A stretch of 56,533 nucleotides of DNA, taken from NCBI GenBank assembly GCA_000182565.2, contig KQ257454.1. One strand, given 5' to 3'. A program made the position numbers and the translations under genes. Numbering within the stretch: the stretch's first letter is position 1; every line of letters begins with the position of its first letter. The DNA comes from Spizellomyces punctatus DAOM BR117. Taxonomy: Eukaryota. Below the pieces are notes generated by a model. It did no database searches. It worked only from the letters and a program-made list of their open reading frames with translations, and was not told where the DNA came from. Below, piece after piece: positions 3,658-56,533 of the stretch.

Positions 3658-5961
3658 TTAGAATCCACCTCCCCACCGCTCAACCAACTCTTCAGTCAAT
3701 GTCCCCGCCGGATCCCCATTCCCAATCAAGCCCAAAACATCCACATCAACATTTCTCTGAAAATGATGCGAATGCGGGATCGTCATACCAGGGAGCGTGG
3801 TGGGTTGGCTATCTTCGCCTACTTGGAGTTCAATGAGGGTTTTGAGTTGGGCGTATAACGAGTGCATGTCGAGGTAGGTCGGTGGGGAGGGGGTGGGTTC
3901 CATGCGGACGCGTTTGGTGGGGGGAAAAGTGGGGAGAGAGGTTGAAGGAGGGTAGTGGGTGTAATCTGGGGATGGGAAAAAGGGGTCTTGGGTTAGGAGG
4001 GTTGGTGCGAGGGAAGTGGAGGAGAGGAGGCCGGCGGTGAGTTGGGAGCGGGGGTGGGGGGTGGTGGTTGACTGGCCGGTCGGGTCAGTCGAGTGATTTG
4101 TGGTTGTTGTTGTGGTGGTGGTAGTTGTTGTCGTCGTAGGTGGCGTCGAGGATAGAGCGGTGAACAGGGTCGTGGATAGGGTCGTCGGGTGGCCTGGAGA
4201 CATTCCCGTTTGTATTCCCGTGTGCATCCCTGTGGGCGTCCCTGTGGGCGTCCCTGTGGGCGTCCCTGTGGGCATTCCCGTTGGTATCCCCGTTGGTATC
4301 CCGGTACGCATGCCAGCATGCATTCCAGGTGACATTCCCGTTTGCATCCCTGGTGACATTCCCGTTTGCATCCCAGGTGACATTCCATTGAGCATTGCAG
4401 GTGATATTCCGGTATGCATTCCAGGCGACATTCCATTCGCTACTCCAGGGGACATTCCAGGCGACATTCCACTGGTTACAGGTGACATTCCCGTGTGTAT
4501 ACTAGGTGGAATTCCATTGGGCACCCCGGTGGGCATTCTAATGGACATTCCAGTATGCACACTCGGTGACATGCCATTGGACATGCCAGTGGGCACTCCC
4601 GCAGGCATGGGCCCAGGAGGATGCCCCATCATGTGCAAATTCGGACTGCTCATGCTCCGCAACAACGTTGGCGCCGTACCACCCGCCAACAACCCATTTT
4701 CTCTAGGCACCGACGTCCCCGATTTTGTTTTTCCCTTGTGCACCGGCAACCCCTTGCCTCGATTCCGCTTGCGAATCACGTCCGTTTTCAAACTAATCGG
4801 GCGATCCACGCCGTGGAGTTTGAAAAAGAGGCCGCAGGCGTTGCAGAGAGGGTCGCCGTTGGCGTTGCGGCGCCACAGCGATGTCTTGTTGGTACTGCAG
4901 TTTGTGCACACTGTGAATTCGTGAAGGTTTTTGGACGAGGGCTTTTTAGAGGGTGCGCGCCGCATGTCGGCTGACGACGACGATGTGGTGCTGACGGGTG
5001 AGGATGCAAGGTGTTGTTGTTGTTGTTGTTGTTCTTCTTCTTCTTGAACGGGTAGTGGTTGTGGTGGTTGTGGTTGTGGTGGTACCGGGTGTGGTGGTGC
5101 ATGTAAAGATGGTTCTTGTTCATGTGGTAGGGTTGGAACGGGAAAGACAGATTCCAACGAAAACGAGGATGCAGGAAGGGAATTAGAAAACGAGTTTGGG
5201 AGAGAGCTCGGAAGCGAGTGCTCAAAGGAATGCTCTGGGGCAAATGCATCCATGGACATGAATTCGTGCATCCACTGTTCTTGGTCAAAGGGCGAGTCAT
5301 ACGAGTGGCCGAGAAACGCCGCGTCTTGAAAAGCGGTAGCTGAAAAGGCGGGACCTGAAAAGGCGGGGGCTGAAAATGCCACGGCGGCGGCTGTTTCCAC
5401 TTGTTCCATTGGCGAATCCATTTTGTTGTGGGCGGGTATAGACATGGGCCTGCTGCTCATTGTCGTGTCCACATCCATTCCTGTGCTCATTGTGTCTGTG
5501 CTCGTGTCTCTGCTCATGTTGACCTCTGTTCCGTGTCTGTCCCTGTCCATGTCCATAAAGTCTGCATCTCCACTCGAGCGATTCCGTAGCTGCTCCTTTT
5601 TCTTTTGCATGTGCATGAGACGCCACGTCATGTTTTCCAGACGAGCACCGTTGGGAAAAGCCTCTTTGACTTTGGTAAAGAGCCTCCATACGTCGTGGTT
5701 GTCTGTTGACGTTTTTGCCGTGGACATTAGAGATGGAAAGAGGGAATCTGGGTCGACCAGACGCTCTTGAGGAGGCGGAGTTGCTTCCTGCAAGAGTTCC
5801 TCCTTGACCTTGTATCCCTGTTCCTGTACATGTTCTACAGTGGTAAAAGTGGGAGGAGGAGGAGGAGAAGAAAAGAGTTGTTTGAATATGGATTTGCGTC
5901 TGTCTGGGAGAGGAGGGAGGAGTGTATCGACAAGAGATATAGTAGTGTTGGAGGAAGTCAT
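3658..5961 (-). CDS. areA: AreA/Nit-2/Gat1-type GATA nitrogen-regulatory transcription factor, intronless
   Basis: N-terminal DUF1752-like motif [32 protein letters not shown] finger [50 protein letters not shown]. Likely ATG at 5961, since the ORF extension upstream is a (GT)n microsatellite. Confidence 0.88.
4195..4610 (-). repeat. Coding minisatellite (12-bp and 24-bp units) encoding [12 protein letters not shown] repeats within the GATA factor
   Basis: On the + strand, CCCTGTGGGCGT occurs ~4 times and GGTGACATTCCCGTTTGCATCCC units recur; peptide [16 protein letters not shown]...GTPTGTPTG. Confidence 0.85.
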
Positions 5962-5999
5962 GACCTCTCCAGTAACAAGACAGCAAATGAGCAAAAAAC

Positions 6000-6155
6000 A
6001 ACACACACACACACACACACACTATAGTCTGTATGTGTGCGAGTGTGAAATAAAAAGAATAATAAAAAGAAGAAGGAGAAAAAGGACACGTGAGAATGCA
6101 ACATGTGAAAGAAGGGGGAATAAACGCGTGTGTGTTTATAAATAGTCACAATTGT

Positions 6156-28074: not shown

Positions 28075-29301
28075 TCAAGACTGCTTTTGTCTCTCCCCTT
28101 TTACTTGCCACAATCCAAGTAGGTAATTCAGTCTAATCACCAGTAAGTCTACCAACATTACAACTGAATCCCTGACCAGTGACATTTTTGTCCCTTCTAC
28201 CTCGTGCCAGTTCACAGGAACTTCCACAATGGGGATCCCGAGATTCAAAGCAATGAGAAGCAATTCAATGTCAAAAATCCACCCTTCAGCGTGCATATTT
28301 GGGAAGATGGAACGGGCCGCGCCTCGCGTTAGAAGCTTGAATCCACATTGTGTATCCTTTATGGACGCAATGCCGAGAATGAAAAGAACAGTATGGAACC
28401 CATGCATGAGAAAATTGCGGATGAAAGATCGCTGAATACAGAGGCAGGAGTTAGTTACCGGAATGTGAAGGGTGAACACATCTCACCTACCTTTACGACG
28501 GCGTCAGATTTCACCATATGTGCCCGTGACCCGACAGCGACTCCAAGCCCGTTCCGTGAAACGGCATCAAGACGCGCTTCGAGCTCCTCTACGTCAGAAA
28601 ACCGTGTAGCACCGTCAGCGTCGGCAAAGAGGAGCTTCTGACCTCTCGAAACCAACATCCCCTAAACCCCAATTAGAATACCAATGATCCCTTAATAGGT
28701 CGCTTCTTCCAAATGAACTAACCTGCGTTACCGCCCCTCCCTTTCTCGGTCTTTTCAACGTCATCACTCTATATCCGCCAACCGCCAATTTCTCCCCCAA
28801 GCTCGTCGAATGGCGTNNNNNNNNNNNNNNNNNNNNNNNNNNNNNNNNNNNNNNNNNNNNNNNNNNNNNNNNNNNNNNNNNNNNNNNNNNNNNNNNNNNN
28901 NNNNNNNNNNNNNNNNAACTCCATCGCACTCGACTTGTGTCATCCCCACTCCCGTCATCCACGATAATAATTTCATACAGGAAATCCTTCTCTCGCTGCG
29001 TCCGGTTGTCCAAGTATTCCACTGTCTCTTTCAACATACTCGGAAGTCGGGCTGTCTCTTTATATGCTGGGACAATAACTGAAAGGGATATGCGCTTGCC
29101 GTTCACATATTGTGGTTCACTGAGGAGGGAGGGAAAGCGTGTACGGGTCCCAGTGCCAGCATCAAGGTAGTAGACCTCATTCTCAGTCGCAGGTCGCGGA
29201 CGGGGAGAGACGATATAGAGAGCTACCACGAGGATACCCAAGAGAACGACAGCGAGTACACTTAACTCTGCCGGAACGGTCAGAGTTGAGACGATGCCCA
29301 T
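28075..29301 (-). CDS. ALG5: Dolichyl-phosphate beta-glucosyltransferase, multi-exon, spanning an assembly gap
   Basis: N-terminal TM helix; [71 protein letters not shown]. Confidence 0.93.
28817..28916. other. Assembly gap (100 N)
   Basis: Run of N. Confidence 1.
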
Positions 29302-29448
29302 TATGGGCGTCCGTAAGCTTGGAGGAGGGCCGCAGTGGAACGGTACCGAGTTGATGACACTTGCTGTGCATGGTATCCATAGTTACAACCTGGTGCTGAC
29401 CAAGACCCATTAACTGCGACAACCGCCAAGATCTGCAGATGATGCGAG

Positions 29449-31872
29449 ATGTATTTATACCATCTGTGCTTCGAAGTCTTCTTGCCCGTCCTTCACACGC
29501 CGTCTACTCCCAAGTTTGCCTTCCCACACTCTCAAGAGCCGTACGCAGCAGGGTCCTTACCGCCCGCCTTTCCTACGGATATCTTCGATCGATTATTGCC
29601 CAGTTATCGGATAGGAACTGTCAATAAATTCAATAAATCGAGTAAGATAAAATTAAAAAAGGAGAGTCAGCTTCCTAAAGGTGGTGGAAAGGCGTTTTGC
29701 GAAAATCATTCTGAACTAGGGCCGGACGCATCCTCCGGGAGTGGTGCAAAAAGCCCAAGCGAAGGACCTTGCCACCGTCGTCGGACACGACAGTTCCCAT
29801 CTGCTGGGCATAGTGTCGCAGATTGGAGAATTGGAACTTTGACCATTGAGTGGTACGATATGTTTGATGGCGCCACCAACAAAGGTGCAGGTGCCTCCGC
29901 AGGCGAACCTCGAACACCAAAAGCGTCGCAGCCAACGCGTGAGGGAGGGGGCAGCTCCACGTTGATCACCGAGACAGCTGCGGTGACCAGAGCAGATACG
30001 GAAAGTGCTGCTACCCGTAATAATGAGCTACCTGGATGTTCTCGAACAGAATTCCTGGAAGAGGACCATGCGCTCCCATCACGTCGGCAACGAACACGGT
30101 CCGCGAAAAAGAAACAAAAAGCTCACACGATTCCGACAAGCGGTGCATTCATTCCCTTCCGTACGGGAACCACTGAACTCAACGCTGGAATCTTGCATCT
30201 TTACCGAGAACGCGCAGATGTTGAGGATATTCTTCATCAGTCTGCTATCCCCCTGCAAAGTGACCCGTCGACTGAACGTCTAACACCAGAGGAAATGTCT
30301 TCTGTCAAGGGAACTGGCACAATATTGTGTGTCTTGGCTGTACCGTCCTACATGACCGCGCAAGATTTTCTCAACTTTGTAGGGCCACTTCGTGATGAGA
30401 TGAGCCATCTGAGGATCGTGAGAGACTCGCTACCTAACCGATATATGGTGCTCATCAAGTTTCGGGACGCACAAGGCGCTGAACGGTTTTACAAGGACTA
30501 CAACGGCCGGGAATTCAGTTCCCTCGAGCCTGAGATGTGTCACGTTGTCTACATCAAATCGATCGAATTCAAATCCCGGGCCATTCCGCCCTACGCATTC
30601 CCTCCGCTTCCAGATGATCCCAGTACATTGTTTTTGCCGACTAAGGTGCCCCTTAGTCCGGCTAACGCAGAAGTCAGCGCCTCTCCAAATTCCGGATCTC
30701 CTTCAAGCACCTACAATATCCCAAGCGATGTGGCAGAGGCAGGAGAGCCTAGAACATCACCCTATGCCACAAGTCCTGCCAAGTCCCCCACTCTGATGAC
30801 AACAAATCAACTTCTGGAGCTTCCAACATGTCCGGTCTGCTTGGAGCGGATGGACGCATCGGTGACCGGCCTGTTGACCATTCTATGTCATCACACCTTT
30901 CACTGCCATTGTTTGTCAAAATGGGGGGATTCCTCATGCCCTGTTTGTCGATATTCTTCAAAAGTCTCATCGTCGCTTGACTCTGACGACGACATGCGAA
31001 ACGAGTGCATGGACTGTGGCTCCACGGAGAATCTCTGGATCTGTTTGATATGCGGAAACATTGGATGTGGGAGATACCAGGAGGCGCACGCGCAGAATCA
31101 TTTTGCGGATACTCAGCATACCTACTCAATGGAGCTCGAGACACAACGAGTATGGGATTACGCCGGAGATGGATATGTGCATCGCTTGATACAAAACCGT
31201 ACGGATGGTAAACTGGTAGAATTGCCCGCTCCCAATCGCACGCACTCGTCTGAATTTGGCGAGAACTTGAACGGAAGCGGAGGTGGGCGGGCAGAAGTGG
31301 GTGGGATGGTTACCACCGAAAAGATGGAGTCCATCGGGTTAGAGTATACGTATCTCTTGACGTCACAACTTGAGTCGCAGCGATTATGGTACGAGTCGCG
31401 CTTAACGCAGATAGAGACCGCTCTGACGCAGCAAAGCTCTGAGCTGACGGGGGCATTAAGTCAAATGCAAGCTGAGCGAGATAGTGCTGTAAAATCACGT
31501 GATGATCTTCAGGCACAGCTTACGCGTGCAGAGAGAGACAACCGTGCCCTTCATAGTCGGTTGACCAAGATTCTGGACCGCGTTGTTAGCAGCGAAAAGG
31601 ATCTCAAAGAAGAGAGAGCCTTAACGAAATCCCTGCTGGCAAATCAAACGTTGTATCAAACCAAGATTGCATCCGCGGAGCAGACTGTGCGTGAGAAGGA
31701 CGCTGATATAGCAGATTTGAAAGAGCAAGTCCGGGACTTAATGGTCTTTTTGGACATGAGAAAGCAGGTAGAGGATTCCGGAGTTGGCGAGGTAAAAGGC
31801 GCTCAAGTGGTCGGTGTAGCTCCCGCCCCTCCCACCCCAGGACCAAAACGGAAGGGCAAGGGAAAGAAATGA
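29449..31872 (+). CDS. BRAP: BRAP2/IMP/Etp1 RING-H2 plus ZnF-UBP ubiquitin ligase, intronless
   Basis: BRAP2 domain (LCVLAVPSYMT...PNRYMVLIKFR), RING (ELPTCPVCLERMD...CHHTFHCHCL), ZnF-UBP (LWICLICGNIGCGRY...RVWDYAGDGYVHRL) and a coiled-coil tail. Confidence 0.95.
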   Translation: MYLYHLCFEVFLPVLHTPSTPKFAFPHSQEPYAAGSLPPAFPTDIFDRLLPSYRIGTVNKFNKSSKIKLKKESQLPKGGGKAFCENHSELGPDASSGSGAKSPSEGPCHRRRTRQFPSAGHSVADWRIGTLTIEWYDMFDGATNKGAGASAGEPRTPKASQPTREGGGSSTLITETAAVTRADTESAATRNNELPGCSRTEFLEEDHALPSRRQRTRSAKKKQKAHTIPTSGAFIPFRTGTTELNAGILHLYRERADVEDILHQSAIPLQSDPSTERLTPEEMSSVKGTGTILCVLAVPSYMTAQDFLNFVGPLRDEMSHLRIVRDSLPNRYMVLIKFRDAQGAERFYKDYNGREFSSLEPEMCHVVYIKSIEFKSRAIPPYAFPPLPDDPSTLFLPTKVPLSPANAEVSASPNSGSPSSTYNIPSDVAEAGEPRTSPYATSPAKSPTLMTTNQLLELPTCPVCLERMDASVTGLLTILCHHTFHCHCLSKWGDSSCPVCRYSSKVSSSLDSDDDMRNECMDCGSTENLWICLICGNIGCGRYQEAHAQNHFADTQHTYSMELETQRVWDYAGDGYVHRLIQNRTDGKLVELPAPNRTHSSEFGENLNGSGGGRAEVGGMVTTEKMESIGLEYTYLLTSQLESQRLWYESRLTQIETALTQQSSELTGALSQMQAERDSAVKSRDDLQAQLTRAERDNRALHSRLTKILDRVVSSEKDLKEERALTKSLLANQTLYQTKIASAEQTVREKDADIADLKEQVRDLMVFLDMRKQVEDSGVGEVKGAQVVGVAPAPPTPGPKRKGKGKK

Positions 31873-48794: not shown

Positions 48795-49706
48795 TTATCG
48801 TCTGCTTCCACGTGGTTGCTCTCCCCTACTTCCTGGTGTAAATACCCGAGCTCTATGATGAAGTTGATCTGCTTTTCGTGAACGCTGTGCCTGGCGGCCA
48901 CCAAAAGTCCGAGGCCATGATGAATATTGCACTGTCTCCACAGTTCTTTCAGCCAAAAGACCTGCTCGAATCTTGGCATCAATCCTGCGTCTCTTTTGGC
49001 TCTTCCGTCGACGGCCGGGTTTATGGTTGGTCGAGGTCTCAGGTTGACATGGAATAGTGATCACCCTTGTACTCCAAGCATCCTATCATGATATACAGAT
49101 TATTCATGTGCTTCCCTCCCACACTACACTCTTAGTTTTTCTTACCCGTGACACATGTGACTCCTTTCGTATTTGTTCTGGGCTGATGATAACGTCTCGG
49201 AAGCATCGTCTGCGCTCAGCCTCAAGGTCACTAGTTGCGCGAATGTGGAAGTCTTTCATTACCAACGAAAATCAAATACCAGTTTCCTTTCAGCCCATAC
49301 CTGTCTATTTCATACTCATGGGGTAGTCTTTCTGGAAGAATCTCTTGGGGATTTAAATTAATACGTGAGAGGGGAGTGGAAAAAAGTCGGAACCCTGTGA
49401 AGTAGTAACTGCATTGTCATTATCCCCTGATATAAATAGCAATGTCTGGTCGTGCTGATATAAACCCATACCTTCCCCAGGTCCTTCCTCTTCATTAACG
49501 TATATCTTAGTCCCTTCCTCCAGCCTGCTCACTCCCATTGGCTCCACCTCGAACAGTTCTGTAAGGTAACTCTCAAGTCGTTGTGCTGCCGCATCGTCAA
49601 GGGTATCCTCTCCTGGCAAAACTGGATACAGGATTGAGCGTACAGAGCTCGCGGTATTTGGTCCTACTGAACTACATGAAACCTCGCTGCATTTTACTGG
49701 GGACAT
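48795..49706 (-). CDS. Hypothetical multi-exon protein, weakly reminiscent of the fungal DUF2011 family
   Basis: ORF pieces separated by GT-AG introns: ...ERRRCFRDVIISPEQIRKES / AWSTRVITIP...KPGRRRKSQKRRR. The family resemblance is weak. Confidence 0.4.
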
Positions 49707-49815
49707 CGTGCAAGAGTTGAATGTGCCCTCTTCTGCTTGTGCGGGAATGCTGACCCAACCCGACTTGTTGACACGGCAACCGATCGCTGCTTACGTAACG
49801 AGTAATTTGTCAACG

Positions 49816-49908
49816 GGAAATACAATTTGATGCCATAGTGCGGAGCCGATGGGTATTGGCACTAGCACCCGCACCAGGGATTGAACCGGCGACAACCAGT
49901 TCGGAAAA
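49816..49908 (-). ncRNA. Fanzor omegaRNA: scaffold ~49836-49908 plus a ~20-nt guide from flanking DNA (49816-49835)
   Basis: Minus-strand TTTTCCGAACTGGTTGTCGCCGGTTCAATCCCTGGTGCGGGTGCTAGTGCCAATACCCATCGGCTCCGCACTA lies just after the Fanzor stop. Possible pairings are GAACUGG/CCGGUUC and GUGCGG/CCGCAC, with GGGUG/UACCC as an overlapping alternative. It resembles the published SpuFz1 omegaRNA as recalled. Confidence 0.82.
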
Positions 49909-49923
49909 GGTAATCTAACTAAT

Positions 49924-50127
49924 CTACGCTACGGCTGGAACACCCCTGCTGAACACTTTTGGTCTACCGTGTCCATCTAACATTGATTGCACGATCATCA
50001 GCATGTTGCAGGTGCTCAGCGTGTCCCTGTTCCAGTAGCGCATCGTCCAGGCTTGCTGACAGTTAGGGTTGGTACAACCCAGCAATCCATGGACTTTTTC
50101 AATCTTGCCTTCGCGACGGCGCCAAGG
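49924..50127 (-). pseudogene. C-terminal fragment of a Fanzor1 (TnpB-derived) RNA-guided endonuclease
   Basis: PWRRREGKIEKVHGLLGCTNPNCQQAWTMRYWNRDTLSTCNMLMIVQSMLDGHGRPKVFSRGVPAVA*. It has the second zinc-finger Cys pair, the RuvC-III WNRD motif and an RP..F.R tail, and closely matches the S. punctatus Fanzor1 C-terminus as I recall it. Confidence 0.9.
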
Positions 50128-50166
50128 AAACACTTTGAAACACTTTGAAACACTTTGAAACACTCC
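50127..50166. repeat. 10-bp tandem repeat GAAACACTTT x3 plus partial copies at the deletion junction of the Fanzor element
   Basis: ggaaacactttgaaacactttgaaacactttgaaacactcc; a further variant caaacacttc at ~50178. Confidence 0.9.
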
Positions 50167-50235
50167 AATGCATTGGGCAAACACTTCAATACGGCTTATT
50201 ATATAGAATATTATAAGCCGGGTATATCATATTAT

Positions 50236-50835
50236 TGTAACGACGAGGACGTCTTCGAGAGATCGCGAGTAAGCCCAAATCGGACGCGGGAAGCACGAAT
50301 CGCGTGACCAACTCCACCGATTGGGTTACCGCGACCGAAAAAACCGGTTCGGAGAATGGCAATTGGCGCATTAGATTTCAGCGTGCCTCGTACAACCTGT
50401 GGAGGCCCGAGCCAGTGCGGAAAAGGAAGAGATCGGTACCGCCACCAATAAATCAGTTGCGGTGCAGCGACACCCATTAGTTTAGTTTAGTTTAACAGTT
50501 TATCCAAGAATCTTGTATAAAAAGGATGTATTCAATAAAATAAGTCGGGGGCAGAAGCCGTAGCGACAAAAAATCCCCATAACTCGCTTCTCAACTCCAA
50601 TCTTAGGTTAACAGGAACCTAACAGAGCGCTTCAACGGCCTGATCACCCGTACCGAAGCCTCTAAATCCTGCTCGGTTCACAACTAACCGACTCTCCTTG
50701 CCTCTCGCCCTCAAGTCGCTACCGACGCCCAAAGAAAGGATTTGGAGACTACGATTCCTAGTACGGACACCCACACAACCTGCTAGGAGACCCAAGTTGT
50801 CTTTACTGTAGTCTACCAACAAAAAATCCGTTACA
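50236..50835 (+). repeat. 5' LTR (600 bp)
   Basis: Begins TGTAACG and ends CGTTACA (7-bp terminal inverted repeat), contains AATAAA signals and is followed directly by a PBS. Confidence 0.85.
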
Positions 50836-50850
50836 TGGTGGAGAAGCGCG
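50836..50850 (+). promoter_or_regulatory. Primer-binding site, probably for tRNA-Ala
   Basis: TGGTGGAGAAGCGCG is complementary to a tRNA 3' end ...CUUCUCCACCA with U70 and A73, the alanine identity elements. Confidence 0.7.
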
Positions 50851-50990
50851 ACGAACCGCCTTCCCCTCTCAAATTCAGCTGAAAACCTTATTCGGTCGTA
50901 CCGAAACTCTTGCGCAAACCGAGATCCGCTCAGGTAGCTACTCGGAAACCTTTTCTCTCGTTTCGGAGACAGAACTTCACGAAACCGAGA

Positions 50991-53168
50991 ATGATGCCGG
51001 TCGAACGCTCACCAACGCGAGGCCGCTCACCTGTGATCCAGACTCGTAGTCAGGGTCCTGCGGAGGACGTCGAAGTCCCTCCCGCAACACGCCCAAGGCG
51101 TTCAGGGACCACTTCCGTCGAACCGGAAGCCCCTAACTTGGCCACGATGGCCTCTGAAGTGGCAGCGTTAAAAGAAGACATTGCCCGCTCGACTGCTGCA
51201 ACGCAGTTGGCAACTCAAAACCTTACGGAACAGCTTCATAGGCTTTCCGAACGTCAGACAGCGGCGGATGAGCGCCTCGCACGAGCCTTAGAAGCCCTAG
51301 CGCATCGCCCGCTGCCTGAACAACCTCCCATAGCACGAGCTACAAGAGAACGGTCCGCAACCCCGTGGGAAACGGCGGACACACCAAGGGAGCGTACCGA
51401 ACCAAGTTTTTCAGGTGCGGTGCCTCCAATCCAAGTGCCAGCGGCCCCGTGGGCCAGCGACACCAAGGTCGATTCCTTGAAAGCAAAGGACGTACCCGAG
51501 TTTACGGGCAGAAGAAACCAAGACGTTGAAGAATGGCTTAACAAAGTCCAACTTCTTCAAAACGTTAGCGCAACGTCGGATGCCAGGATGGTACAGCTCC
51601 TACCAGCCATGATAGCCGAGAAAACCCCTGCTGACGCTTGGTTTTACACTCTGGAAGCCCAGGAAACTCGCTCATGGACCTGGAAAAGGTGGAAAGAGGA
51701 ACTGCTTCGAGAGTTCCGAGATCCCCTAACCGAGTCCAAGCGCAAAACCGAATATGTGCGCTGCCATGCGAACCCCAAAGAATTTCGCAGCTTTCTCGCG
51801 TTCATCGACCACAAAACTCATCTCCGGCGCCTCGCTTATGGCGACCGGGCAAACATAGAATGTCCCGCTGACCAGCATTTCGACCTAATAGTCGAACAAT
51901 TGCCCAGCGACATCCAAATCATGGTCAAATCCTGTAACGTCACGAACCTGACCAAATTAAAAGACTTCCTGCGCCTTTATTTCGGCTCTGATGACACCAG
52001 AAAACGAGACCCTTGCTACAGCGGTGCTGCAGAAGCTCAGAAGAAGTCACAAAAGACCGGAACCGACAAAGGCCCTAAGCAGACGGCTCCGCATAAAACC
52101 GGAAACCCCGAAAAGGGTCGCGATGGTCCTCAGAAGATGGTTCCGGACCCCAACAAGGAACCACCGGCACCCTGCAAATTCTGTCAGAAAAAGCATTGGA
52201 ATGTTTTCTGCTGGCAGAACCCGAACCGAAAAGATCCTGAAGATGGAAAGAAAGGACCATATGGAGCACCCATGCCCTCAGGTTGGAAACCCAAACAGGA
52301 ATCGAAGAAGGCGTACATAGTGGAGCTGGACTCGACGTCCGCTACCACCGAGACTCTTTTTTCGGCTTCGGAACTGGAAAGAACGGAAGCCGCTAATCAA
52401 GGATTCCACACCATCGGGTTCTTTCATTCACCCAAGCACTCGGAATCAACAATTTTGATGACCGCACCTCTTTCCAAGGTCACGGTGACCAAGGAAGAGG
52501 ACCCCCGCACGCCCACGCAGGGCTGGGACCGAGTCTGGGACAACATAGCCATCATCTGGGGCACCCCGCAAGTGGCTCTGATGATGGGCAACAACCCCCG
52601 CGCGCTCAGCTTCTTCGCCAAAGAACCGAAGCGAGGCGCCGGGCACCTCGGGAACGACCCCTACGCAGTCGCGTGGAGTTCCCACCACCTCTACATCGCT
52701 GCCGCAGCCGAAGCTGACAAGGATCGAATCCTGCGAAAGGTCCGAGAAGACGGTACCCCTCGTTTGATTCTCCTTGCCTGGATAAAGCTCGACGAGCGCG
52801 AGAAATTCTTGATGTGGAGCTCTGAAGATCCTGTTATCTTTGATGCGTACGCCAACCTGCAACTGGTGGCATTTCTCCTGACAGGCAATATCGTTCGCTC
52901 AGACTATTATTATCGTCGCGGAAACCCCAAATTTCGGCACGTTAAAGACCATCCACGTCTCCAAAGACACGAAGAGAGCGAACGGACGCGTATAGTCATG
53001 CTGGCTATCGAACAAGTTGCTCGCCAGAATAAAACAACAAAACCACAAAACGACAAAACTAGAGAACACTTTGAGAGTGTGATCAAGGCTACGGAAGCAA
53101 CAATTTACCGCCCGCCCCCCCTTTTGGGGGGGGGGGGGGGGTTTTTTAAAACCTCTCTTCTCTGGTGA
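50991..53168 (+). CDS. Gag (capsid plus CCHC-type knuckle) with a long C-terminal extension; 3' end unreliable next to the gap
   Basis: DVPEFTGRRNQDVEEWL, TWKRWKEELLREF and the knuckle CKFCQKKHWNVFC. Confidence 0.8.
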   Translation: MMPVERSPTRGRSPVIQTRSQGPAEDVEVPPATRPRRSGTTSVEPEAPNLATMASEVAALKEDIARSTAATQLATQNLTEQLHRLSERQTAADERLARALEALAHRPLPEQPPIARATRERSATPWETADTPRERTEPSFSGAVPPIQVPAAPWASDTKVDSLKAKDVPEFTGRRNQDVEEWLNKVQLLQNVSATSDARMVQLLPAMIAEKTPADAWFYTLEAQETRSWTWKRWKEELLREFRDPLTESKRKTEYVRCHANPKEFRSFLAFIDHKTHLRRLAYGDRANIECPADQHFDLIVEQLPSDIQIMVKSCNVTNLTKLKDFLRLYFGSDDTRKRDPCYSGAAEAQKKSQKTGTDKGPKQTAPHKTGNPEKGRDGPQKMVPDPNKEPPAPCKFCQKKHWNVFCWQNPNRKDPEDGKKGPYGAPMPSGWKPKQESKKAYIVELDSTSATTETLFSASELERTEAANQGFHTIGFFHSPKHSESTILMTAPLSKVTVTKEEDPRTPTQGWDRVWDNIAIIWGTPQVALMMGNNPRALSFFAKEPKRGAGHLGNDPYAVAWSSHHLYIAAAAEADKDRILRKVREDGTPRLILLAWIKLDEREKFLMWSSEDPVIFDAYANLQLVAFLLTGNIVRSDYYYRRGNPKFRHVKDHPRLQRHEESERTRIVMLAIEQVARQNKTTKPQNDKTREHFESVIKATEATIYRPPPLLGGGGGFFKTSLLW

Positions 53169-53237
53169 GTGGGGGGGGGCGATAAAAAAAAAAAGCCAGA
53201 CTAAGACCCACCCCGCGGGCGGGCTGGACGCTAGCCG

Positions 53238-53726
53238 NNNNNNNNNNNNNNNNNNNNNNNNNNNNNNNNNNNNNNNNNNNNNNNNNNNNNNNNNNNNNNN
53301 NNNNNNNNNNNNNNNNNNNNNNNNNNNNNNNNNNNNNNNNNNNNNNNNNNNNNNNNNNNNNNNNNNNNNNNNNNNNNNNNNNNNNNNNNNNNNNNNNNNN
53401 NNNNNNNNNNNNNNNNNNNNNNNNNNNNNNNNNNNNNNNNNNNNNNNNNNNNNNNNNNNNNNNNNNNNNNNNNNNNNNNNNNNNNNNNNNNNNNNNNNNN
53501 NNNNNNNNNNNNNNNNNNNNNNNNNNNNNNNNNNNNNNNNNNNNNNNNNNNNNNNNNNNNNNNNNNNNNNNNNNNNNNNNNNNNNNNNNNNNNNNNNNNN
53601 NNNNNNNNNNNNNNNNNNNNNNNNNNNNNNNNNNNNNNNNNNNNNNNNNNNNNNNNNNNNNNNNNNNNNNNNNNNNNNNNNNNNNNNNNNNNNNNNNNNN
53701 NNNNNNNNNNNNNNNNNNNNNNNNNN
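53238..53726. other. Assembly gap (probably hides the protease)
   Basis: Run of N. Confidence 1.
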
Positions 53727-53789
53727 ACCATGTTAATCACGGGACAGACGCGCGTGGCAGCCAAACTTTCTCATCGAAAACCCTCTTGA

Positions 53790-56533
53790 GGCCACGCTGC
53801 TAGCTCAACGGTCCCGTTAGGCCTCAAACTGTCCACCGCGACCCATAATTCGGTTGCGGACCCCGAAGAGAACATTTCCAAAGAAGAATGGCAGACACTT
53901 CGGAACAAATGGAACCTCGACTCTACGGAGAGGGCTCCAGGGGCCTTCGAAGCCCAATTAAAAGACGCGGAACGTTTCCACGTCGATCTCAAGCGACCCA
54001 AACCCGTGGTCTGGGCCCTAATCAACATTCTACGACACTTCCATCAAGCCTTCAGCTATGAGGGTCATCTCATAGGGAACTACACCAAGATTCCTTATGC
54101 GCCTCGATTTATCTCGGCTCCGCCACCCCTTTCGAGGCCACGGTCGTACTCTCCGTTGGAGCGGACAGCCCTCGAGACGGAGCGAGACACCATGATGGGG
54201 CTTCAGAGGTGGAAACGAACCACCGAAGTAACCTTCGCCAGCGATCCTGTTATCATTCGCTATGCAGACAAACCCCCGCGCGTAGCCTTCGACTATCGCC
54301 GAGCCAACGACTGCATGGCCTGGGATCCATATCCCTTTCCCATCATGCTCGACATCCTGAACTGGATCGTCGCAGTCCCATTCCGATACATATCGGGAGG
54401 TGACGCAAACAAAGGATTCTACCAAATCGCCATCACCGATGCGTCGGTACGCAAATGGCTCGCGCTCAGACTCCATGACGGCATCTACGAACCACTCTTT
54501 ATGCCCTTCGGACCCAAGACTGCCCCCTCGCACTTCTGTCGGGTGATGGACGACACCTTGGGTCCCTCCAAATGGCGAAATATCAACAACTTCGTCGACG
54601 ATATCCACACACGAGCGGAGACAGCCGCGGAAGCCCTAGACGCCATCGCGGACTGGCTCGACCGCTTTTCCAGAGCCAAACTCACCCTAAGACTCGACAA
54701 GTGTCAATGGCTCTTTCACCAGCTCACGGCCCTCGGTTTCGTTGCCTCCTCTCAGGGTCTCGCTACCGATCCAGACAAGGTCGCAACCATAGTCGATTGG
54801 CCACAACCCAAATTCATAGGTGACCTATGGTCATTCGTGGGTCTCCTAGGGTTCTACGCCCAATTCATTTCTCGCTACGCGGAACTCGTCCGACCCCTGC
54901 AAGACGCTATCCAAGAGGGCGTTCGCGAATACCGAGACCTTAAAAAGGGTCGCGCTGACCCGAAGAAAGGCGCTGAAAAGCTCAATTCACCATCCATGCT
55001 CGACACGGCGGTGGCCCCTACAATCACAGCCACCGGAGCCCGATTTGAGGTTTCGCAACATCCGAAATCTAGCTCCTCAGACCTACCGGCGGTCAATCTA
55101 CGCCAATCATCGCTGGCGGACTTACCCATTGACCCCTTTTGTGTCGGACGCCTTGCTCGCAAGCGCCCCGACCAAGGTCTGCGCAGATTTATCGCGAAGC
55201 GTGAAGTTTCATGGACCGATTCCCGAAACTCTGCCTTCGCAGCCGCCAAGCAGGCTCTGACAACAGCTCCAGTGCTCGCGGCACCCAGAAAAGGGTTCCC
55301 CTACACCCTTCACAGTGACGCTTCCTACACAGCGTTTAATGTCACGCTCGAACAGTTACAGCCGGATGCTTCTAAACGCCCGCTGTGCTACCATTCCCGA
55401 GGCACCACCACCTCGGAAAAGAAGGCCCCCCCCGTCGAACTCGAGGCCGGATGCCTCATTTGGGGCCTCGGAAAACTCCGCCCATACCTCGAAGGCCTGC
55501 CTTTCACGGTCATTACTGATCACCGAGCTCTTTTGTGGCTCGCTAAATACAAAGGCGAGAACCGTAAGCTTCTCCGCTGGGCCCTCGATCTTAGTTACTG
55601 GTCCGAATGGATGACAATCGTTCACAAACCAGGACGTTTTCACATTGTCGCTGATACACTTTCACGGCTACTAGGAGCGGAAACCCTACTCTGCTCCACC
55701 GCGACCCAAATATGGGTGTCGAAACGCGGAAGACGACGGCTGCGCACCACACCAGCTGCTCTCGCACCTTCCTCGACACTGGCAGATGCCGTCTTTCGTC
55801 TGGCCTTACAGCCTGCACTCATTGCCGCCATCCGCGCTGGCCTCACCGGCCAGCTCCACCCCATAGCCCAACAGGCCCGCACGCTCCTATGGGAGACCAG
55901 CCCCGACACGTACACTACCGCCGACACGCGCTTTCTTCAGGACTGGCAACGTGCAGATAACCTGCTGTGGCACCGTTTTTCAGTCTCCGAAGACCTTTGG
56001 CGCCTTTACGTGCCCCCTGCTTGCACCCCTGAGGTGCGCAAGCTTTTTCACGAGGGGGGAGGACACTTCGGATTCGAAAGAACCTACGCTAGAGCTGCAG
56101 CGCAAGTCTGGTGGCCGAAAATGGCACAAGATTTCAGAAAACACTGCGCAGGATGTGAAACCTGTCAACGCTCAAAAAGGGTACCGCAACTGATTCCGGG
56201 GTTGCTGAAACCCATACCACCAGCTCCGGGATGCTGGACAGTCATCACGACTGACTTCGTAACCAAGCTCCCACTTACTTCCAGAGGGTACGATGCCTTT
56301 TGGTTAATAGCATGTAAATGCTCAAAGAGGATCCACGTATGGCCCCTCAAGAGCACTGCGACAGCTATTCAGGTCGCGGAACTCTTTATAGAGCGCTACG
56401 TCCCATTGCACGGCATCCCGGAGACCATTATCTCGGACCGCGACTCCAAATTTACGAGTCGATTTTGGCAGGAGGTCTGCAAAAACCTAAAGATTAATCA
56501 AGAGCTCACCACAGCCTACCACCCTCAAGGTGG
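53790..56533 (+). CDS. Pol: reverse transcriptase, RNase H and integrase (open to the window end, so absent from the ORF track)
   Basis: RT: RVAFDYRRAN, DANKGFYQI, MPFGPKTAPSHF, FVDD at 54591. RNase H: LHSDAS, ELEA, TDHRAL, ADTLSR. Integrase: HHCC motif (HEGGGH...CETCQRSK) and core (TTDFVTKLP, IISDRDSKFTS, TTAYHPQ). Confidence 0.95.

Follow-up and report, generated by a model that had tools for sequence, protein, structure and literature searches.

A right-end-only SPu-1 (Fanzor1) remnant beside a Ty3/gypsy retrotransposon in Spizellomyces punctatus, most likely an inert relic

A Fanzor1 coding remnant and its omegaRNA scaffold

In the window, by which we mean the whole 56,533-nt stretch of DNA analyzed here, a short piece of an SPu-1 (Fanzor1) element lies on the minus strand, with unique DNA on one side and, on the other, a stretch of low-copy DNA that leads into a Ty3/gypsy retrotransposon. 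The features, each with the evidence that delimits it in brackets, are as follows.

49821..49835, minus strand: putative 15-nt guide in the unique flank 3' of the scaffold (published 14-15-nt extension)
49836..49909, minus strand (read 49909->49836): SPu-1 right end, corresponding to a 74-nt omegaRNA scaffold (fold, published nucleotides, read breaks)
49836-49865, minus strand: right terminal inverted repeat, the outermost 30 nt of the scaffold (loose ends at 49835/49836 and 49865 in X18, X1, and X3)
49924..50127, minus strand: last 67 codons (49927-50127) and stop of a Fanzor1 ORF (8gkh_P, homolog identity, DNA depth)
50128..50235, no strand: low-copy junction DNA outside SPu-1 (repeats, X18 depth, read divergence)
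50236..50835, plus strand: Ty3/gypsy 5' LTR, TGTAACG...CGTTACA (contig starts, termini, PBS)
50883..56531, plus strand: retrotransposon body, with a gag-like frame at 50883-53168 and a pol frame at 53790-56531 that runs off the window

The minus-strand frame 49924-50226 is open for 100 aa, and its residues 33-100 match the C-terminus of SpuFz1 (PDB 8gkh_P, chain residues 962-1032, E 1.2e-36), next to a weaker PDB match to Parasitella Fanzor 1 (9cf0, E 3e-4). Protein homology to Fanzor begins at the codon 50125-50127 and ends at the stop codon 49924-49926. In some tblastn alignments it seemed to extend upstream to 50205 (P0004, P0006, and P0008 of 15 queries) or to 50214 (P0014), but we rejected this weak extension because reads from other genomic copies diverge sharply at 50127. 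Of a complete Fanzor1 ORF (~630 aa, with a RuvC triad and a zinc finger), 67 codons are left: of the two zinc-finger Cys pairs, the second (CTNPNC) is present and the first one, which lies upstream, is missing; D606, the D of the WNRD motif (RuvC-III) given as catalytic in the available text of PMC10432273, is present and D383 and E541 are absent. The preliminary description of this DNA, which had recognized only the last ~67 codons of a Fanzor with a Cys pair and WNRD, was right on this point. Since a Pfam search of the 100-aa frame gave two chance-level matches only (E 0.15), the Fanzor family is visible here only through the PDB and homolog searches. No Fanzor piece besides this fragment was found by tblastn with 15 homologs over the 56.5-kb window.

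Among 16 candidate longer proteins, 15 match the fragment at E <= 1e-3, and the top 11 homologs are all proteins of S. punctatus DAOM BR117, with 84-96% identity to the fragment. Identity reaches 96% for the paralogs SPPG_07598 and SPPG_09423 of S. punctatus DAOM BR117 (P0001 and P0002). The short loop CQQAWTMRY, which had been taken as a sign of a possibly uncharacterized ortholog, is shared by three of the 15 homologs (P0001, P0002, and P0006); the loop is longer in P0007, which has 638 aa, the length given for SpuFz1 in the available text of PMC10432273. Judged by these comparisons, the peptide is one more S. punctatus paralog copy and no new ortholog.

The scaffold starts 14 nt past the Fanzor stop. 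When numbered along the minus strand (nt n = 49910-n), it is laid out as stem 1 (nt 8-14/21-27), a linker (nt 28-33), and a long stem 2 that contains an 8-nt loop. For the 89-nt RNA 49909->49821, the predicted fold has -32 kcal/mol (z -3.37), a stability that none of 200 shuffles reached, in line with the structured right end proposed earlier. We thus find, inside the right end, a 74-nt stretch with stem 1, a 6-nt linker, stem 2, and an 8-nt loop, whose modeled shape is of the canonical SpuFz1 type and not of the ghost type described below. A comparison with the SpuFz1 omegaRNA had also been proposed: 17 of the 18 nucleotides named for the cryo-EM omegaRNA in the available text of PMC10432273 are matched, provided that a stem 1 shorter by 1 nt is allowed. 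U5, C6, C7, and U16-G20 are in register, A29, C32, C34, U35, G37, C40, G70, A72, and A75 match after a shift of one, and G22, a protein contact, is without a counterpart in the 49836..49909 scaffold. At 49888, 7 X18 reads diverge in a way compatible with a copy having one extra base, that is, a stem 1 longer by 1 nt, which suggests that the cryo-EM RNA represents the longer variant; as no insertion reaches 10% of the reads, most genomic copies seem shorter, like this locus.

With regard to the family, the scaffold is near the SPu-1 consensus. Among the scaffold positions with at least 10% differing X18 reads, its only minority letter is the A at 49898 (found in 88 of 504 reads with the first mate on plus), which gives stem 1 a U-G pair where, unlike here, most SPu-1 copies have C-G. 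The outer edge, 49835/49836, is marked by the break of an X3 contig (255 unlike letters) and of 8 X18 reads from other copies, and X18 reads and three X1 contigs part from the window at 49865; the 30 nt between the two breaks agree exactly with the length published for the inverted repeat. Position 49836 is a true repeat boundary, as had been claimed, and a TA dinucleotide stands at this edge (49836-49837). Beyond it, the published RNA continues from the scaffold into a 14-15-nt guide taken from the flank, for a total of 88-90 nt (available text of PMC10432273). The corresponding putative guide here, 49821..49835, has no CATA-preceded match with up to 3 mismatches elsewhere in the 56.5-kb window. 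A tRNA-like stretch in the scaffold, GGTTCAATCCC, was considered as a tRNA and dismissed, ARAGORN finding 0 tRNA genes in the window; a search of 49000-51000 against Rfam gave 0 matches at E <= 1.

The break at 50127 and the proposed left end

Four public runs were mapped to 49500-50900 at 80% likeness. Copy number was read from the depth of 38-nt ChIP reads (X18), in which AT-rich DNA is under-represented, and from fragmentary contigs: X18 depth per direction is 27-99 over the unique flank (49500-49828), 346-1124 over the element (49829-50110), that is, 7-22x the flank, 8-22 over 50158-50251, below the single-copy level, and 99-238 from 50252 onward. Within the element, the excess is 7-10x over the right end and 10-22x over the 49924..50127 fragment. 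Multi-copy DNA that combines homology to the Fz gene with an SPu-1 end is what defines a partial Fz locus, and this is what lies here (7-22x the flank, 96% protein identity to SPPG paralogs).

The inner limit of the element is sharp. At 50127, 25 X18 reads (agreement 0.99) and two X1 contigs switch to Fanzor coding letters: past this position the diverging letters, when hand-translated on the minus strand, read KGFKA*PHSR, and the paralogs have KGFKTRPHSR at the same place, before PWRRR. Other copies thus run on into the gene at 50127, so it is this locus that switches there, to a tandem of GAAACACTTT and then to a palindrome. The tandem counts 3.8 units of the 10-mer GAAACACTTT at 50127-50164. 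It goes on degenerately to about 50190 (GGAGTGTTTC and GAAGTGTTTG on the minus strand) around the palindrome CAATGCATTG, and AACACTTT is also found within the Fanzor fragment, at 49952; speculatively, the degenerate tandem at 50127-50190 may be filler copied during repair. A low-depth X1 contig (3.3) spans 50158-50204 with one base left out at 50202, and no X1 contig covers the flank 49500-49828.

The preliminary description had placed a left-end hairpin in this junction DNA and, on this basis, had proposed a miniature element (49836-50224) with both ends intact. The hairpin itself exists: an AT-rich palindrome at 50192-50220, with 13-nt arms, 1 mismatch (92% complementary), and a 3-nt loop, is the sole one of that quality in the 56.5-kb window and stands 15 nt from the insertion point of the LTR. 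Its identity as an element end is another matter. SPu-1 elements are described as ~2,100 bp long with 33-bp terminal inverted repeats and TA duplications (available text of PMC3627910), and Fz loci as having IRs of 30 nt, the 5' one preceded by CA (available text of PMC10432273). As the termini of SPu-1 are mutually inverted repeats, the true left end must be an inverted copy of 49836-49865, of which we found no trace in the window: blastn of 49816-49926 against the window gave inverted matches of at most 18 nt, at chance level, no 33-mer on either strand apart from the right-end repeat itself is identical to it at 20 or more of 33 positions, and the best Smith-Waterman score of that repeat against the reverse complement of 50128-50900 is 8, a value equaled or beaten by 418 of 500 shuffles. 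The second 30-33-bp inverted repeat that would bound a complete SPu-1 element or a MITE-like internal-deletion derivative is thus lacking from the window. Given the lack of an inverted repeat and the low depth at the palindrome, the locus is not bounded by two element ends, and we rejected 50192-50220, which has no likeness to the right repeat, as an SPu-1 left end. A second right-end-like piece considered at 50344-50426 has only 15-nt matches at 80-93%, which we judged to be due to chance. Scans of metagenome contigs with P0002 and with an alignment of 8 full-length proteins gave no relative and no independent left-end sequence.

On the far side of the junction DNA, position 50236 is where contigs of X1 and X3 begin, and the loose ends before it end in a purine run resembling a polypurine tract. 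The LTR that begins there carries a TATA signal (50514-50522) and AATAAA (50535-50540) and is followed at 50836 by the PBS-like TGGTGGAGAAGC (TGG...). The pol frame has Pfam matches to RVT_1, RT_RNaseH, RT_RNaseH_2, Integrase_H2C2, and rve. Its TG...CA termini, its PBS, and its order RT - RNase H - integrase make the element a Ty3/gypsy retrotransposon, whose 3' LTR falls beyond the window. For the gag-like frame (761 aa), Pfam gives no match at E <= 0.001; by eye, a CX2CX4HX4C-like knuckle can be seen in it. One X3 contig is without 144 nt of the LTR (joint 50362 to 50507), which represents an LTR length variant.

Transcripts of the SPu-1 family

In X17, an RNA run and no small-RNA library, of which about 6 in 100 were read and whose strand calibration on the LTR fits both a 3'-biased sense-first-mate and a 5'-biased antisense-first-mate reading, depth with the first mate on minus is 12,494 over 49876-49922, 943 over 49829-49875, and 18-84 in the bins of the ORF. 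As the scaffold bins are far deeper than those of the ORF, scaffold RNA of the family, taken over all copies, builds up separately from the mRNA, and the omegaRNA strand is favored by a depth that climbs along the Fanzor ORF toward its 3' end. The pile at 49872-49917 has its first mate on minus at about 1000:1 and matches only stem 1 and the linker. It ends loosely on both sides (at 49872 and at 49908-49917) and shows fixed differences at 49881 (A in 10,987 of 11,545), 49883 (A), 49910 (C), and 49914 (G), and 21,826 of the 22,363 X17 reads fit only partly and carry the letters of other copies. The pile probably stems from ghost-type or other SPu-1 loci, with transcripts that reach 19 nt or more beyond the 5' side of the scaffold.

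Over the locus itself, the bin 49782-49828, which holds 8 of the 15 guide bases, has an X17 depth of at most 0.34, about 2 reads' worth at most, next to 0.9-1.2 in the flank. In the junction bin 50158-50204, the X17 depths are 0.38 and 0; with no X17 RNA across it, nothing reads in from upstream. Overall, the SPu-1 family is strongly expressed, and no X17 RNA is assignable to the 49836-50127 locus.

RNA on the LTR (50236-50900) occurs in both first-mate orientations, which meet at about 50530-50580; these transcripts represent either convergent 3' ends or divergent starts.

Relation to known SPu-1 loci and the nature of the remnant

The family, its omegaRNA, and the ghost loci and partial Fz loci in the genome of S. 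punctatus have all been published already, and our comparisons follow the available text of the papers concerned. With the SPu-1/SpuFz1 locus (Bao and Jurka 2013, PMC3627910; Saito et al. 2023, PMC10432273; 8gkh), the present locus shares the protein family and, almost certainly, the genome, as well as the right terminal repeat, the two stems, the 6-nt linker, the 8-nt loop of stem 2, the start of the scaffold 14 nt past the stop, and a guide made of the flank beyond the right end. Unlike SPu-1/SpuFz1, it keeps 67 of ~630 codons and is without the left repeat and, unlike the 75-nt SpuFz1 omegaRNA, its scaffold has 74 nt, stem 1 being one nt shorter on its 3' strand, where the cryo-EM RNA has G22. 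For the genome of S. punctatus, Saito et al. (2023, PMC10432273) give 134 ghost loci next to 42 Fz loci, of which 19 have their full length, and mention 11 loci that contain Gypsy/Ty3 or other genes. It is with the partial loci, those beyond the 19 full-length ones, that our locus has in common a Fanzor fragment plus an SPu-1 end, and some of these also have Gypsy/Ty3; we infer that it is among the 42.

The nuclease-less loci of S. punctatus to which the preliminary description alluded are indeed on record, as the ghost Spu-1 loci (PMC10432273), for which 126 unique scaffolds of 74-76 nt are given in PMC13434818. They share with our locus a scaffold without a working nuclease gene, and it is from them that the idea of loading in trans originates. 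As described in the available text, however, ghost Spu-1 loci have two 30-nt IRs, which differ at 7 positions, around a conserved body of ~550 nt with no Fz coding sequence, and a stem 2 with a 3-nt bulge and not an 8-nt loop, whereas the present locus has one IR, a remnant of Fz coding sequence, and the 8-nt loop. At a greater distance, the TnpB/omegaRNA systems of IS200/IS605 elements (e.g. ISDra2) share the guide RNA derived from the right end with the flank as guide, and a TAM that matches the sequence at the left-end junction. Unlike them, the SPu-1 system has a eukaryotic host, ends that are inverted repeats with a TA duplication, and an omegaRNA described as being without a pseudoknot (available text of PMC10432273).

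On this basis, we regard the locus as a right-end-only remnant of an SPu-1 (Fanzor1) element, most likely an inert relic of the partial Fz kind that has already been counted, a reading to which we give a probability of about 0.85. What survives here of SPu-1 is the 30-nt right repeat inside the 74-nt scaffold, the 14-nt spacer, and the last 67 codons; of the ~2.1 kb of the element, about 1.8 kb is missing from this place, including the left repeat, the 5' region of the gene, and all catalytic residues but one. At 50127/50128, the element sequence gives way to 108 nt of low-copy DNA that is unrelated to it, which the Ty3/gypsy LTR follows. The locus is unable to make a nuclease and, having one end only, cannot transpose as an SPu-1 element. 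If it were transcribed, its scaffold, given its closeness to the family consensus, could probably be loaded by a paralogous Fanzor, and the loaded guide would then be directed to sites consisting of 5'-CATA followed by TGGCATCAAATTGTA; most likely, though, the locus is inert. Furthermore, similarity to Fanzor C-termini and to the omegaRNA, the absence of which had been named as grounds to abandon the initial proposal, is present for both.

How the rest of the element was lost is linked to the first of the readings that compete with a one-ended relic. The 5' part of the gene and the left repeat could still exist beyond the window, if the element had been split by nested insertions, namely of a piece including 50128-50235 and then of the Ty3/gypsy retrotransposon, the LTR of which begins as close as 108 nt from the break. 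Yet the LTR and the Fanzor sequence are not in contact, which makes a simple single insertion insufficient and calls for a deletion or nested events; the 108 nt in between are neither Fanzor nor repeated, so that at least one further event is required, and over the 6.3 kb that the window covers to the right there is no other Fanzor piece. As the window ends before the 3' LTR, a split element keeps a small share of the probability, and we consider it unlikely. A MITE-like miniature SPu-1 (49836-50224) that kept both termini and could be mobilized as a guide cassette, which is what had first been proposed, would account for the palindrome, clear and unique in the window, and for the TA dinucleotides at both proposed edges. 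The ends of this family are, however, mutually inverted, and the palindrome is unlike the right-end repeat; depth is below single-copy at the palindrome, other copies diverge at 50127 and not at 50224, and what other copies carry next to their 30-nt repeat (the loose ends at 49865) is not seen, by inspection, in 50128-50235. We consider this form of the proposal almost certainly wrong.

A more subtle case is that of an orphan guide cassette, in which the locus would be one-ended, as in the relic reading, but transcribed from a start inside its ~290 nt, its omegaRNA being loaded in trans by full-length paralogs and enlarging their repertoire by one guide, as has been suggested for ghost loci. 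Several observations are in keeping with it: the scaffold at 49836..49909 is near-consensus with a canonical fold, scaffold RNA (943 and 12,494) exceeds the ORF bins (18-84) by far across the family, natural scaffolds of 74-76 nt exist (available text of PMC13434818), and gene-less ghost omegaRNAs support SpuFz1 editing in human cells (available text of PMC10432273 and PMC13434818). Against it, X17 depth in the guide bin (0.34) is no higher than that of the flank, nearly all X17 reads are partial fits with the letters of other copies, no X17 RNA crosses 50158-50204, and the Fanzor gene's own 5' region is lost; the scaffold is also without the G22 protein contact of the cryo-EM RNA, although most copies appear to lack it too. 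We therefore hold a cassette of this kind to be rather improbable, and it is even more doubtful that, in general, a right end with up to 290 nt upstream suffices for a working omegaRNA, by means of a start site internal to the final ~200 nt of the ORF.

From the perspective of Fanzor biology, the useful result is a negative one, in that the both-ends reading rested on a palindrome that is no SPu-1 terminus, and the locus therefore represents no new miniature mobile form. Should one-ended remnants nonetheless make omegaRNAs that are loaded, a promoter or processing signal would have to lie within ~290 nt and the natural set of guides would be larger; one-ended relics would then be live guide donors, widening the targeting of full-length paralogs beyond that provided by ghost loci.

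Elsewhere in the window, a host gene at 3658-6021 encodes a GATA/AreA-type zinc-finger protein (Pfam), and another, at 29443-31872, encodes a BRAP2/zf-UBP/RING protein (Pfam), which has a 100% match that is the window's own and, next to it, matches at 61% and then at 53-55% identity in other Spizellomycetales. Runs of N occupy 28817-28916 (100 bases) and, between the gag-like and pol frames of the retrotransposon, 53238-53726 (489 bases).
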